Shown here: piece after piece, positions 2,260-59,649 of the stretch | Layout of the letters: every line of letters starts with the position of its first letter | How positions within the stretch are numbered: position 1 is the stretch's first letter | IMG/VR virus record: IMGVR_UViG_3300035498_000319 | Span: 29,314-93,313 of that record | Length of the DNA: 64,000 bases | Direction: 5' to 3' (one strand) | From: a virus | Lineage: Duplodnaviria > Caudoviricetes | Notes under the pieces: generated by a model | What the model was told of the DNA's origin: nothing | What the model saw: only the letters and a program-made list of their open reading frames with translations | The model's database searches: none | Position numbers and translations under genes: made by a program

Positions 2260-4651
2260 ATGAAAGAAGAAAAACGAGAACTGATAGACCCTTTAGAGTT
2301 TTACGAACATGAAGAGTTTATACCAGTGGACGAGTGGACTCCTACCAAGGAGGAAATGATATTCACAACTACGAAAGGTGCTATTATAGCTGATGTCTCT
2401 GGCTACTTTGGAGACAGTCATCAAAGCGCTAGTAATACCTTTGTAATGAGTCCAAAGCGGTCTTATAATTCCGTAGCTATGCGAGAGCATATCACTTTAT
2501 ATCTGAATTACTTTGAGAGATTCTATGATAGAGATCATCAGCTTTTCTCAACCTATTGCAGAATAAAGTATATGATCGATCATGAGGAAGGATATACGAA
2601 GAGTATGTTCTTCTTTGATCTAATGAAGTATATCATACGTGGTCCGATAGAGATGAAGACCATGAATATGAATGCTGCTAATTATTGCCTTAGCTTGAAT
2701 TATAAGTCCCGTACTAGTTCTTCTCTTCAGTATAATGATGAACATGCTATGCTGATGATGAAGATCTCGGTACAAATAAATCAAATCATTCCTCTTCTAT
2801 GTCATTTCATGTATTCCAGAAAAATACAGAATACGTCTGACTTTTTGTTTGAAATATATGATAAGGTCATAGATGGGTATGATATAGATATCTATTCTAA
2901 ATTGTATGAGACAGCGTATTCCAATGTAATAAGATCCGTCAAGCAGAATCCTATTATATGGGGTAAGCAATCTATTAGAGGTAATGACCCTATAACTCAT
3001 GCAATGCAGTCAGTTCAGAATATCCTGATAAATATTATATGCAAATATGTGTATAATGGGAATTTAATACACCTTGAATTCAGGGCAGCATAATAGCAAT
3101 ATTATGACTGAATTCTCCTTAATTGCTGGGAACTCTCTGAGGAGACAATCAGCAGCTAAGCAATATTATATAAAGAAAGGAAGTGATATTGAAAGTTCAA
3201 CGACTATCGAAAGGATATCTTAGAAGAAATATCTAAGAGAATAACCGAGTAGAGTAGGATAATAAATCCGAAATGGGAGACATCCCTAGTATGGTAAAAG
3301 TATTAGGGATGAAGATATAGTCTAGTCTCCATAGCGATATGGGGTAGTTACGAAATTATAATTCCGTTATCAGGAACACCGGATATCAAATCACCAATAT
3401 CGAATACGAATATGCTTTTGTTGCTCTTAGTAGTAGCAAGAGAGACGAGGATTAAGTTACTACGAATATAACACTAATTTATTCGAGTAGATTCAGTCCC
3501 CTTGATATGGAAACATAACAAGGAAAAACCATTTGAATTGCTGGGAAGCCGTAAAGCCTTTATGCCACAACGGAGCGATTTTTATGCATACGTGAAGGAG
3601 ATGAAAATCTGAAAGAAGTTAAAGGATGCTATATGGGGAAACTCTAAGTAGTAATCAGTAATCGGTAATCAGCAGCTAAGCACAGTGCTGTGCGAATCGG
3701 AAGTTGAATATATTGGATATCTTTAGGACCAGATAGGTGCAAGACCTATATCCAATACCATAATGATTTTAAAATGTAAGCAAAAGATCCTTATGTAAGT
3801 TATAAACCTAATAGACCGGTATAATTACCGGAGGAAGGAGCAAGCGCGCACAAGCACAGACGAAAGTTCAACGACTATCGAAATCTTATTGTATCGCTCA
3901 CTGAGTTAAAGATATAGTAAAGAGAGTAGAGTAGGGTAGTTCAATACTGTAGAGCTATCCGAAGTGGATGGGGCCCTAACGGAGAATGCCGAGGGTTATG
4001 ATATAGTCTATTGTCTGTAGAAATACAGAATGTAAAAAGATGAATTCTGAATTCGATAAATTTGAGTCTTATATTACTAAAGCAGATGCTGCTCTAGCAA
4101 TGCAGAATCAAATAGGTGCTGATGAAGCAATGAAACTAATCAGACAAAGATTTGGACCCTTCGATCCAGAAGAGATAAGATTCTTTAAGAGAAGACTCTC
4201 TGATGAGACTGGAAGGGTTAAGATTAATAGTCTACAGAAGATGCTTGTATTCAATCTATTCTATAAGTATTTTCTGGATACGCAGGCTGTTAATTGTATC
4301 AATCTGGATGATTATATCACTCTTATACTTGCGGCTAGAAAGATTCTAGAAGAGAATGGCATGTATCTACTTGCTGCTATAACCTCTTCTAAAGTTGTAA
4401 GAATGGCTACAAGAAAGAATGTGAATAAGAAAGAACTAACTAAACTAGAAGGCAGTGAAGTCTATACTTCTATTAGAGAGAAGTATAGAAATGATAAAAT
4501 AGAAAAACAAATTCTAGGAATCATTGCGGCTGTCTTAAGTTCCGACTTCGAGTATATCAATTTCCATGATAAAGAAATCGATGGAAGAAGTATAAATGTC
4601 ACGGCTGAAATTGCTTCAGAGGAAATTCTTATGTATGTGAATATGATATGA
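2260..4651 (+). CDS. probable sigma-like promoter-specificity subunit of non-virion RNAP (AR9 gp226/phiKZ gp68 type); spliced from exons 2260-3074, 3353-3452, 4040-4651 (508 aa)
   Basis: Removing two group I introns gives one in-frame ORF (...GNLIHL|NYNSVIRN...SSSKRDED|MNSEFDKF...). The function is inferred from size, early promoter, genomic context and remembered resemblance, not from a search. Confidence 0.55.
3075..3352 (+). mobile_element. group I intron 1 (278 nt, no ORF)
   Basis: P AATTGCTGGGAA, Q AATCAGCAGC, R GTTCAACGACTA, S AAGATATAGTCT; P1 U-G pair at exon end CCT; terminal G3352 restores the frame. Confidence 0.9.
3453..4039 (+). mobile_element. group I intron 2 (587 nt, no ORF, extended P5/P6)
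   Basis: Same P/Q/R/S motifs; exon GGAT pairs with internal guide GTCC; terminal G4039 directly before in-frame ATG AAT TCT. Confidence 0.9.
3712..3760 (+). ncRNA. tRNA-like mini element (acceptor stem + T-arm + ACCA) inside intron 2
   Basis: ATTGGAT/ATCCAAT 7-bp stem; ATAGG-TGCAAGA-CCTAT T-arm; discriminator A + CCA; no anticodon arm. Confidence 0.6.
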
Positions 4652-5092
4652 TTAGACACGTACATAAGAATTATATAGATAAAAATGGACAGTTTACAAT
4701 CTGTCCATTTTTATTTTTTTAACTATAATATTAAAGATATGCGGATATATAGTAAGACTCCTATAAAGTTATTTATCGGTGGGAGCATTGAATTCTGCGA
4801 ATATATCTTTACCACCCGACTCCCGTAGTCAAACTACATTCAAACAAGTCACTCTCAAGTCACATTTTTAAATGGTGGAAAGATTAACGCACTTTCCATC
4901 CATGCACCGAAAAACAGGGTATCATATTTAACCAGAAAAACTCCAAAATTCTTGAATCAATTTTCTCTCTGTCTACTGCGTATTTATCGGCCCATGCATT
5001 TGGGCCGATAAATTCTTTTTAATCATATATTATAGTAATGCCTTAGATATATATTATAACCAAAACAGACAAATAAACGGAGGCGATTAATT

Positions 5093-5521
5093 ATGATTAA
5101 TATATTTAAGAATAGAATTAAAATTGGAGCAAGTTATATACTAGATAAGAATAATTCTCTTAAGCTGTATGAATATGATCCCGTAGTGGTAAGAGTAGTA
5201 AAACGAACCGGCTTTAATAAATATAGAGTTATTCCTGTAGCTCCTGTATTATTACCGGCAGAAAGTGAAGACTCTTATTCCTTAAGGCATTTGGATGTGA
5301 AAAGAGAATTACTAACTAGAATAGATGATTCTAATAAGACTATAGTAGTTAGATTTCCGTCTAATATGCCTGTATTTAGCGATGTAGATATAATAAAGCT
5401 AGATGGCATCGTCAAGTCTACTGAAATGGGATTTGCATTAAATAAATCTCAGATAACCGATTTATCTAAGATTGCTTGTAAGATCGCTTTAGCCCATAGA
5501 ATTGCTAATATAGAGGTGTAA
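5093..5521 (+). CDS. hypothetical protein
   Basis: GGAGG RBS; early motif upstream. Confidence 0.7.
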   Translation: MINIFKNRIKIGASYILDKNNSLKLYEYDPVVVRVVKRTGFNKYRVIPVAPVLLPAESEDSYSLRHLDVKRELLTRIDDSNKTIVVRFPSNMPVFSDVDIIKLDGIVKSTEMGFALNKSQITDLSKIACKIALAHRIANIEV

Positions 5522-5526
5522 GTAGT

Positions 5527-5796
5527 ATGGAAGAGTTAAGAGATCCTATAGTATTTAAAGATCCGGAATCTAAGTTGGAGAATTATATCTCTATGAGATT
5601 ATTGCGTATGGATTTATTAAATCTAAGAAAGTCAGAGAAATTAAGTCAGAAAGATGTATCTTATAAATCCGGTTTATCTATGTCTTGTATATCTGGTATT
5701 GAAAATGATGGATCTGTAAGTCCTTATTTGAAATCCGTTATTAAGTATATAGACGCTTTAGGATATGAGATATGTCTCAGAAAGAAAGAAGTATAG
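5527..5796 (+). CDS. XRE-family helix-turn-helix protein
   Basis: LRKSEKLSQKDVSYKSGLSMSCISGIEN...P.L...KY.DALGY. Confidence 0.85.
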   Translation: MEELRDPIVFKDPESKLENYISMRLLRMDLLNLRKSEKLSQKDVSYKSGLSMSCISGIENDGSVSPYLKSVIKYIDALGYEICLRKKEV

Positions 5797-58228: not shown

Positions 58229-58267
58229 GCCAATACCTAGCTCTACATTCTGAGGAGGAAATCAAAA

Positions 58268-59203
58268 ATGCTTAACTTAGCTATTTCTGATTGGAGCTGT
58301 TTCCAGTTCACAATTGCCGCTTATGATTATTTCATGAAGTATGGCTATCCGGATTCGGGAGATATGATTTGGGACCCGTTGAGACGTACATTAGAGGATC
58401 TCTTTGATGTAAATCTTAACATGATTGACAGCATGATTATTTGCAGAACCCAAGGGTTCAGTACTACAAATGTAGTCAATGGAGAAATGAATATCATCTA
58501 CATTGGTCCTAAAGATAAACTTCCTAAAGTAAATAAGGCCGTTATGATGCGTGGATCTTATCCTGAAGGAAGATGTCTTGGATTTTTTCCAATAGAAATT
58601 CGAGATCCTGAATATGCAAGAGAAAATCTTGCATACTACCATGATTATATGATAAGCTTTGCTGTAGAAACTGTATACGCATGTATGCCACATGCCATAA
58701 TGCATTCTACTGCATTTGCTAAAGCGCATGAGGTATTTCCCGGACTGTTTGCGCTTGGAAAAGTATTTTCTTTAGTAGGTCCTGATGCAGACATCGATGA
58801 GTTTCTGAAAGAAGCTGCTGCTAGAATCTTTGGCGGGAACTATAGCTGGCAAAATCTTCGTGATATTCTTCCGAAACATTATGATGAACTCGTAAGAGTT
58901 TCTACTAATCCGGTTTATACCGAGATCTATAAGCTCTATATTAAGATTATCTCTGAATTAGAAGAGGAAACCTATAGCGATAATCATACAGATTGTAACG
59001 AAGAAGAACCTGTTGAAGAATCTTCTGAAGGACCTCAGGAAGGGCAGCCGGTTTCTGAATTTCCTGTGGATATGATTAAGGGGCTATTCGGTATGCTTGC
59101 TCCTATGATGCAGAGTGGACTCTCTTTTAATAATGAGAATTCAGAACCTGAAGCAACGGAAGAGCAGACTGAGTCAACTGATAATAATACAGAAGAAGAA
59201 TAA
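58268..59203 (+). CDS. hypothetical protein with acidic C-terminus
   Basis: GAGGAGG RBS; 311 aa. Confidence 0.75.
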   Translation: MLNLAISDWSCFQFTIAAYDYFMKYGYPDSGDMIWDPLRRTLEDLFDVNLNMIDSMIICRTQGFSTTNVVNGEMNIIYIGPKDKLPKVNKAVMMRGSYPEGRCLGFFPIEIRDPEYARENLAYYHDYMISFAVETVYACMPHAIMHSTAFAKAHEVFPGLFALGKVFSLVGPDADIDEFLKEAAARIFGGNYSWQNLRDILPKHYDELVRVSTNPVYTEIYKLYIKIISELEEETYSDNHTDCNEEEPVEESSEGPQEGQPVSEFPVDMIKGLFGMLAPMMQSGLSFNNENSEPEATEEQTESTDNNTEEE

Positions 59204-59295
59204 TCCATAAATAGAAGAGGGGATTTATGCCCCTCTTCTATTTTTTGATTATTATTGAAACTACTAATTAATTATTATTGAAGAGGAATTATATT

Positions 59296-59649
59296 ATGGA
59301 AAACCCGATGATTTTTTATCCTTTTAATTATTGTAGAAACTGTAAAAGGAATACTATAGAAATATATAGCTGGCAAAACTATATTCAGCATTATGATAAA
59401 GTAATAGAGCAATATAAGTCTGATGGTACTTTGCCAGACCATATGAATAAATATCCTATATTTACTATGAGATGCAGAACCTGCGGGAAAGAGTATCATA
59501 TCTATTGGGATGATAATGGAAATTTCCCAAGACCCATGTTAAACAATGATCATCAAAACAAGATATTCATGGGGATGTTTAAAGATGAAAGTATTAAAGG
59601 AAGACCTAAAATTATAACCAATATCTATAAAGAAAGGATGGGACCATGA
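59296..59649 (+). CDS. zinc-ribbon protein
   Basis: CRNC...CRTC; GAGG RBS before ATG 59296. Confidence 0.7.
   Translation: MENPMIFYPFNYCRNCKRNTIEIYSWQNYIQHYDKVIEQYKSDGTLPDHMNKYPIFTMRCRTCGKEYHIYWDDNGNFPRPMLNNDHQNKIFMGMFKDESIKGRPKIITNIYKERMGP

Follow-up and report, generated by a model that had tools for sequence, protein, structure and literature searches.

Why does an uncultured giant phage carry one seven-residue peptide, repeated on the loose termini of the proteins that copy its DNA and transcribe its late genes, and what reads it? The window analysed here, a stretch of 64,000 nucleotides, is part of a jumbo phage related to AR9 and PBS1. A second contig, L132, derives from the same phage (99.94% identical over 11 kb) and reaches beyond the window. 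The relatives compared comprise 12 related genomes with tags (labels include G001, G004, G005, G007, G008 and G009). Sequencing runs yielded only small shares, too little to assign a habitat or host. Literature searches found no paper describing the tag.

The tag is confirmed as real. All 15 motif sites listed in an earlier note on this DNA translate, on the plus strand and in the frame of the ORF, to the peptides given there. Sites were scored with a position matrix trained on 56 motif instances from the tails of DnaB homologues, this genome being excluded. At a score of at least 12, the 93-kb contig contains 9 sites, against 0.2 (maximum 2) in shuffled proteins, a comparison that the earlier note had called for, and 0 in its reversed proteins. 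With the contig extended by L132, 10 matches were found among 29,375 in-frame positions versus 3 among 165,493 out-of-frame positions. Over 14 sites, columns are conserved at 0.79, 0.88 and 0.53 in codon positions 1, 2 and 3, respectively, which places selection on the peptide. The protein-level selection proposed from the differing codons is thus borne out by codon-position conservation and by the off-frame background. A DNA repeat or a promoter element is ruled out, as third codon positions are variable and off-frame matches stay at background level. De novo motif discovery returned the tag as the top motif in G001, G005 and G009 and as the second in G004. The per-genome consensus differs from both the beta-clamp and the PIP consensus, as had been claimed, and is also unlike the T4 clamp-client consensus (PMC6212786).

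Tags fall beyond the regions alignable to AR9 homologues, in agreement with the proposal that the copies sit outside catalytic folds; all those in the window are on the plus strand. The sigma-like subunit of the non-virion RNA polymerase (RNAP; AR9 gp226-like), whose gene starts at 2233 and is interrupted by group I introns, harbors LIDPLEFY near its N-terminus (2281-2304). Its AR9 match is restricted to residues 59-243, and orthologue N-termini carry lineage spellings of the tag. An XRE helix-turn-helix protein (5527-5796) has LRDPIVF in its N-terminus (5536-5556); its orthologues are tagged in G001 and G005, and in G008 at the C-terminus. The C-tail of a divergent DnaB helicase (21726-23537) comprises three copies, LIDPMVFY (23412-23435), MIDPIAF (23472-23492) and LIDPMVFY (23511-23534), the last being the C-terminus itself, and most tails of 120 DnaB homologues hold a related motif in 1-3 copies. 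A conserved 198-aa protein without assigned function (26068-26664) bears an N-terminal LVDPMSF (26092-26112); its orthologues in every lineage are tagged as well, frequently twice. A lineage-specific 101-aa ORF (38229-38534), without orthologue in the compared genomes, ends with RIDPIEF (38505-38525; matrix score 13.1). The tag may mark such proteins of unassigned role as acting on phage DNA.

The C-terminal extension of the non-virion RNAP beta-C subunit (49849-52086) carries LIDPMVF (51883-51903), LIDPIILY (51916-51939) and IIDPIEY (52015-52035). Its AR9 match stops at residue 665 and the first tag begins at residue 679; orthologue tails hold 2-4 copies. In the NAD-dependent DNA ligase (52120-54423), an internal site at residue 117, ISSPMVF (52468-52488), precedes the part shared with AR9, which starts at residue 165. 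Although listed as weak, this site is genuine: in 11 genomes the same alignment column holds the own lineage spelling. The C-terminal extension of the non-virion RNAP beta-N subunit (55812-57632) contains IINPIAI (57579-57599), another site listed as weak that proves genuine, as its G001, G008 and G009 orthologues have their own lineage spellings there. Orthologue tails point to a degenerate second site in the same extension (57483-57503), where the corresponding place holds a full tag in the Met-Cys lineages. Finally, two zinc-ribbon proteins (57881-58228 and 59278-59649) have N-terminal tags, LIDPMII (57896-57916) and MENPMIFY (59296-59319), with lineage spellings in the orthologues of both. 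The DNA polymerase encoded on L132 adds two further tags.

Two sites of the earlier list were rejected as tags. The primase linker string IANPILTY (6140) has no counterpart in orthologues, and the end of beta' (window about 413-430) belongs to a virion RNAP subunit and stays constant whatever the lineage spelling. Beta' and gyrase B also contain motif-like strings inside their conserved domains, but these have one sequence across lineages and are likewise not tags.

The absence of the tag from virion proteins, also claimed earlier, holds when families are split by functional class. Scoring a family as tagged when at least 2 genomes carry the tag, 10 of 22 DNA/RNA-handling families are tagged versus 0 of 24 virion families (Fisher p 1.6e-4), and the non-virion RNAP is tagged whereas the virion RNAP is not. 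Among the proteins that have to reach the DNA, RecA, primase, gyrase A and B, SbcC, the Dda-like helicase, resolvase and RNase H lack the tag in nearly every genome; for RecA and RNase H this applies to every genome that encodes them.

Conservation in related phages, another check named in the earlier note, was found in all 12 genomes, which are tagged at orthologous places. The spelling of the tag is lineage-specific and changes in concert across 10-25 unrelated proteins, resident homing endonucleases included, giving at least six spellings across twelve genomes. Because the tags are respelled in concert between lineages, these sequences strongly imply one reader, encoded by the phage itself. 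Whatever the reader, a motif respelled throughout many unrelated genes is a natural example of hub-client co-evolution of unusual clarity, and twelve genomes with at least six spellings form a ready specificity matrix. Selfish elements are here shown taking up the code of their host phage. That the tag might instead be a degron, a chaperonin-recognition signal or the ligand of a host protein appears very unlikely. It is hydrophobic, terminal and exposed, and tagged phages encode a GroEL-like chaperonin; yet AR9 also encodes this chaperonin and has no tag, the internal ligase site and the tandem copies are atypical of degrons, and the spellings among related phages are too divergent for a conserved host reader.

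The earlier note had proposed a phage hub, scaffold or import factor that recruits both the replisome and the RNAP. The tag shared by both is consistent with a hub, and docking fits better than import into a compartment, which is less supported. In the import reading, which we hold to be rather unlikely, the tag would be a linear, lineage-private access signal, analogous to a nuclear localization signal, for a chimallin-free replication compartment or a clamp-coated DNA condensate acting as one; it would admit the phage's own enzymes, and its spellings would bar those of competitors and host. Of the five late RNAP subunits, only one lacks a tag of its own, and the resident spelling is present in intron HNH endonucleases, a putative methyltransferase and an excisionase-like HTH protein, whereas the AR9 HNH endonuclease is untagged. 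Were this reading true, selfish elements would be obliged to copy the tag in order to reach the genome. Tubulin is encoded in G004, G007 and G009, but is patchy among genomes. In the Chimalliviridae, nuclear import involves the ChmA shell and Imp1/PicA (reviewed in PMC13282480), and its cargo overlaps with the tagged set in the late RNAP, helicase, ligase and homing endonucleases. However, surface features rather than terminal signals are used there, and RecA and RNase enter phiKZ-type nuclei (PMC13282480), whereas RecA and RNase H are untagged here. The PicA/Imp1 profile phrog_3141 had no match in five genomes, nor did the chimallin profile phrog_4795, which matches phiKZ gp54, although divergent copies might be missed and control genomes gave no match with the latter either. 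The untagged RecA, primase, gyrase and SbcC and the undetected chimallin and PicA thus weaken the import reading. Together with a clamp-fold protein beside the polymerase, they lead us to prefer a docking hub.

The gene for this 243-aa protein lies just beyond the window, on the minus strand of L132 (1303-2031), and immediately follows that of the N-terminal DNA polymerase subunit. The protein belongs to family A3 (E 5.5e-49), and its model (pLDDT 93) predicts a two-domain clamp fold, previously unannotated. In a structure search with this model, T4 gp45 was matched with a Z-score of 10.8 (rmsd 3.9, 191 aligned residues); each of the best 39 rows is a clamp fold, and the first unrelated entry drops to a Z-score of 3.8. 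A family A3 model from a relative gave the same structural outcome. The family is present in single copy in all near-complete relatives, as stand-alone proteins of 200-277 aa, RNase H forming a separate family. Among 60 core families it is joint fastest-diverging (22% mean identity), which is weak evidence because the clamp was gathered with a more sensitive profile. A tblastn search with the family matched no cultured phage. A search for an AAA+ clamp loader (PF00004) in five genomes 90-99% complete, which a very divergent loader might escape, returned nothing beyond the P-loops of Dda and RecA and a single lineage-specific AAA protein.

We favor, with modest confidence, a T4-like clamp toolbelt with lineage-private tag spellings, in which we infer the binding, the clamp as reader and its ring form. 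The peptide would dock its carriers on a single hub encoded by the phage, for which the clamp-fold protein is the likeliest candidate. Flexible tails or loops would attach the polymerase, the ligase, two helicases, four late RNAP subunits and several DNA-binding proteins to the outside of the clamp, tandem copies supplying avidity, and the clamp would couple replication with late transcription on phage DNA in the fashion of T4 gp45. A private spelling per lineage would arise because hub and tags drift in step, and incoming DNA-acting genes, such as homing endonucleases and the putative methyltransferase, would acquire the resident spelling. If so, such a hidden clamp, serving some twenty clients, would account for the coupling of replication and late transcription independently of host machinery. 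Against clamp docking stands, besides the lack of a conserved loader among the matches above, that four tagged RNAP subunits and up to three tags per DnaB protomer exceed what simple docking requires. Homing endonucleases and small HTH proteins are tagged too, which suits an access signal equally well or better.

The hub could also be another phage protein, for example a putative single-strand DNA-binding protein or a tagged small protein, or the tags could associate with one another into a multivalent replication condensate. We regard this as quite unlikely. Many conserved unknown families have no AR9 counterpart, and tandem tags on oligomers suit multivalent assembly, but self-association would not obviously drive all tags of one genome to a single spelling, and no rival candidate has a fold known for reading client peptides. 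A conserved 401-aa unknown protein gave no usable match in an Atlas structural search. Co-evolution did not single out the clamp: in a partial correlation of tag distance with family distance it ranks 50th of 60, in an underpowered test in which tag distance tracks phylogeny (r 0.83).

The clamp reading is reminiscent of herpesvirus processivity factors (UL42, UL44, BMRF1 and PF-8), loader-free clamp folds that are among the structural matches here (Z 6.3-6.7), although these belong to eukaryotic viruses. Herpesvirus processivity factors bind a C-terminal peptide of the polymerase; we know of no genome-wide respelled tag for them. In T4 and RB69, the gp45 sliding clamp has a client motif on the gp43 polymerase, the gp30 ligase and gp33 (PMC6212786), and gp45 also activates late transcription together with gp55 and gp33 (PMC7892883). 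As in T4, a clamp-fold protein lies beside the polymerase, with gp45 as its best structural match, and one short hydrophobic motif is shared by the tail of the polymerase, a segment inside the ligase and late-transcription factors (PMC6212786). Unlike in T4, the motif differs, occurs in tandem, is respelled per lineage and is carried also by the phage's own multisubunit RNAP, DnaB, an SF2 helicase and homing endonucleases; no gp44/62-type loader was found.

The phage group containing these phages has been described as without a sliding clamp (PMC7824862). In chimalliviruses, the RNase H-clamp Rhc (phiKZ gp155, Goslar gp190) has a clamp domain, stimulates the split polymerase and is purified together with subunits of the non-virion RNAP (preprints PMC13648687, PMC13648698). 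These phages form a related group with, as here, a split family-B polymerase, a divergent DnaB, two RNAPs and a clamp-derived protein without known loader, and chimallivirus RNase H entries are among our structural matches. Rhc, in contrast, is a monomer that contacts the polymerase over a broad surface, and neither a peptide motif nor a tag is reported for it, whereas the clamp here is a stand-alone protein of 243 aa with RNase H as a separate gene and partners bearing linear tags. AR9 has no match to the clamp family by sequence; its gp128 gene occupies the same position as the clamp gene.

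Every peptide that the earlier note had read from the window was recovered in frame. To avoid circularity, a position matrix was trained solely on the tails of DnaB homologues; it marked 9 sites in the contig of the window phage versus 0.2 in shuffled proteins, while three relatives gave 20, 10 and 12, versus about 1 in shuffles. Third codon positions of the tag vary and off-frame matches stay at background, which bears out the proposed selection at the protein level. Each tested site lies beyond the region alignable with AR9, so the tags do stand outside conserved cores, and 110 of the 153 tag sites in eight genomes fall within 40 residues of a terminus, where 52 are expected. 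The weak sites in ligase and beta-N were retained as tags, and those in the primase linker and at the beta' end were not. In an unseeded motif search the lineage tags rank first or second in four genomes; the same search of AR9 yielded nothing comparable. Judged from the sequences, the tag is a real, phage-wide and lineage-private peptide code, of which no published description was found in the literature searched.

The matrix did not find the window-phage motif, L-I-D-P-M-x-F, in more distant genomes, where orthologues carry a different short motif at matching places. Conservation among the related phages is one of position, with a spelling for each lineage. G001, G002 and G005 use close variants of the window form, G003 Pro-Leu, G009 Asn-Pro-Phe-x-His, G008 Pro-Ile-x-Ile, and G004, G006 and G011 Met-Cys-x-Ile-Val; G007 and G010 have further forms. 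Each genome encodes 10 to 26 tagged proteins, with about 1.5 false sites expected. Because the motif changes jointly across many unrelated genes, this pattern implies one reader for all tags of a genome, which would change along with them. The wide spread of spellings among lineages points to a phage-encoded reader.

Tags occur across lineages on DnaB, an SF2 helicase, both polymerase subunits, ligase, four late RNAP subunits, two zinc-ribbon proteins, the XRE protein and several proteins without assigned function. They are absent in all or nearly all genomes from RecA, primase, gyrase, SbcC, the Dda-like helicase, resolvase, RNase H and late RNAP beta'-N. The reported lack of tags on virion proteins held: none of 24 virion families is tagged in at least two genomes, versus 10 of 22 DNA/RNA-handling families (p 1.6e-4), and the virion RNAP has no tag. 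A conserved protein of 52-59 aa (G005:201340-201519, G008:182176-182337, G003:131576-131749, G009:29172-29330) comprises a small helical part, a tag at the C-terminus, spelled as in its lineage, and little else; by its sequence it is a possible hub adaptor or competitor. Single-genome intron HNH endonucleases, a putative methyltransferase and an HTH protein each bear the resident spelling.

The earlier note had envisaged a hub, scaffold or import factor as reader. The shared tag and the implied single reader stood, and a clamp-fold hub is favoured. The tag is possibly an import signal into a compartment not built from chimallin, chiefly because selfish elements adopt the resident tag. Chimallin and PicA profiles gave no match in five genomes, although divergent copies could escape them. 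Tubulin homologues are patchy, being found in just three of five genomes (G004:161644-162126, G007:156839-157273 and G009:234217-234687, relatives without detectable chimallin) and in neither G001 nor G003.

The favoured clamp-fold protein is encoded directly after the N-terminal polymerase subunit, in one copy in every near-complete relative. Its top PDB sequence match is a weak one to archaeal PCNA (E 0.055). With the model from a close relative (pLDDT 95), only sliding clamps came out on top in three structure searches. Beyond the end of the window, the sequence is continued by two contigs that match the window at 99.94% identity. There the phage's own polymerase carries two more tags and is directly followed by the gene of a 243-aa clamp-family protein, which ties the family to the same phage. 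The model of this protein matches T4 gp45 with a Z of 10.8, and its best 39 matches are all of clamp fold. The family measures 243-277 aa in the lineages nearest the window versus about 200-217 aa in G004, G008 and G009, the difference being a central insertion (alignment A2; e.g. L130:6696-7502, on another contig). In AR9, gp128 (L121:6726-7442, minus strand) occupies the clamp-gene position, flanked by the polymerase and the virion gene that comes next; it has no sequence match to the family.

T4 gp45 recognises a single motif that recurs on the tail of the polymerase, in an internal loop of ligase and on gp33 (PMC6212786), a client set similar to that of the window phage (polymerase, ligase, late transcription). 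In chimalliviruses, whose polymerase is split, the monomeric clamp-derived domain Rhc boosts this enzyme and co-purifies with subunits of the late RNAP (preprints PMC13648687, PMC13648698); no peptide tag has been reported for Rhc, unlike in the window phage. These two likenesses are why a clamp-fold hub is favoured. By analogy and from the models, the tag code most likely works like a sliding-clamp toolbelt, in which the hub would tether replication and late-transcription proteins to DNA through their tags, possibly without ring or loader. The tag differs from the T4 motif, however, and a profile search of five genomes found no conserved AAA+ clamp loader of T4 type; the system is therefore a variant and not a member of the T4-type toolbelt. 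A ranking of families by co-evolution with the tags did not single out the clamp, and the tag may dock on another hub.

The window is the final 64 kb of a 93-kb virus contig. Its DnaB is of a divergent type, with Bacillus phages AR9 and PBS1 as nearest cultured-phage relatives (31% identity). A DnaB relative (46%) lies on contig L033, which is assigned to the MAG of an uncultured member of the Clostridia; as a pointer to the host group this is weak, given possible mis-binning. Mapping onto the annotated AR9 genome identified non-virion RNAP beta-N, beta-C and the sigma-like subunit, ligase, primase, RecA, gyrase and SbcCD. A conserved 312-aa protein, encoded divergently from the polymerase (63024-63962, minus strand), has no detected AR9 counterpart; it bears an N-terminal tag in G003 and G009 and none in the window phage. 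A tRNA-Gly(TCC) lies at 1254-1327 (minus strand). Immediately upstream of the sigma-like gene, a conserved 259-aa gene (1438-2217, plus strand), present in AR9 too, shares its position with phiKZ gp67 but belongs to a different PHROG family. Group I introns split the gyrase B gene (31531-31810, plus strand, 88.8 bits, without an endonuclease ORF) and lie within the sigma-like gene (Rfam RF00028, 3065-3344, plus strand, 87.6 bits; gene region 2233-4651). Between the two large ORFs of the latter, a short reading-frame segment matches the orthologous protein and is therefore probably a small middle exon.
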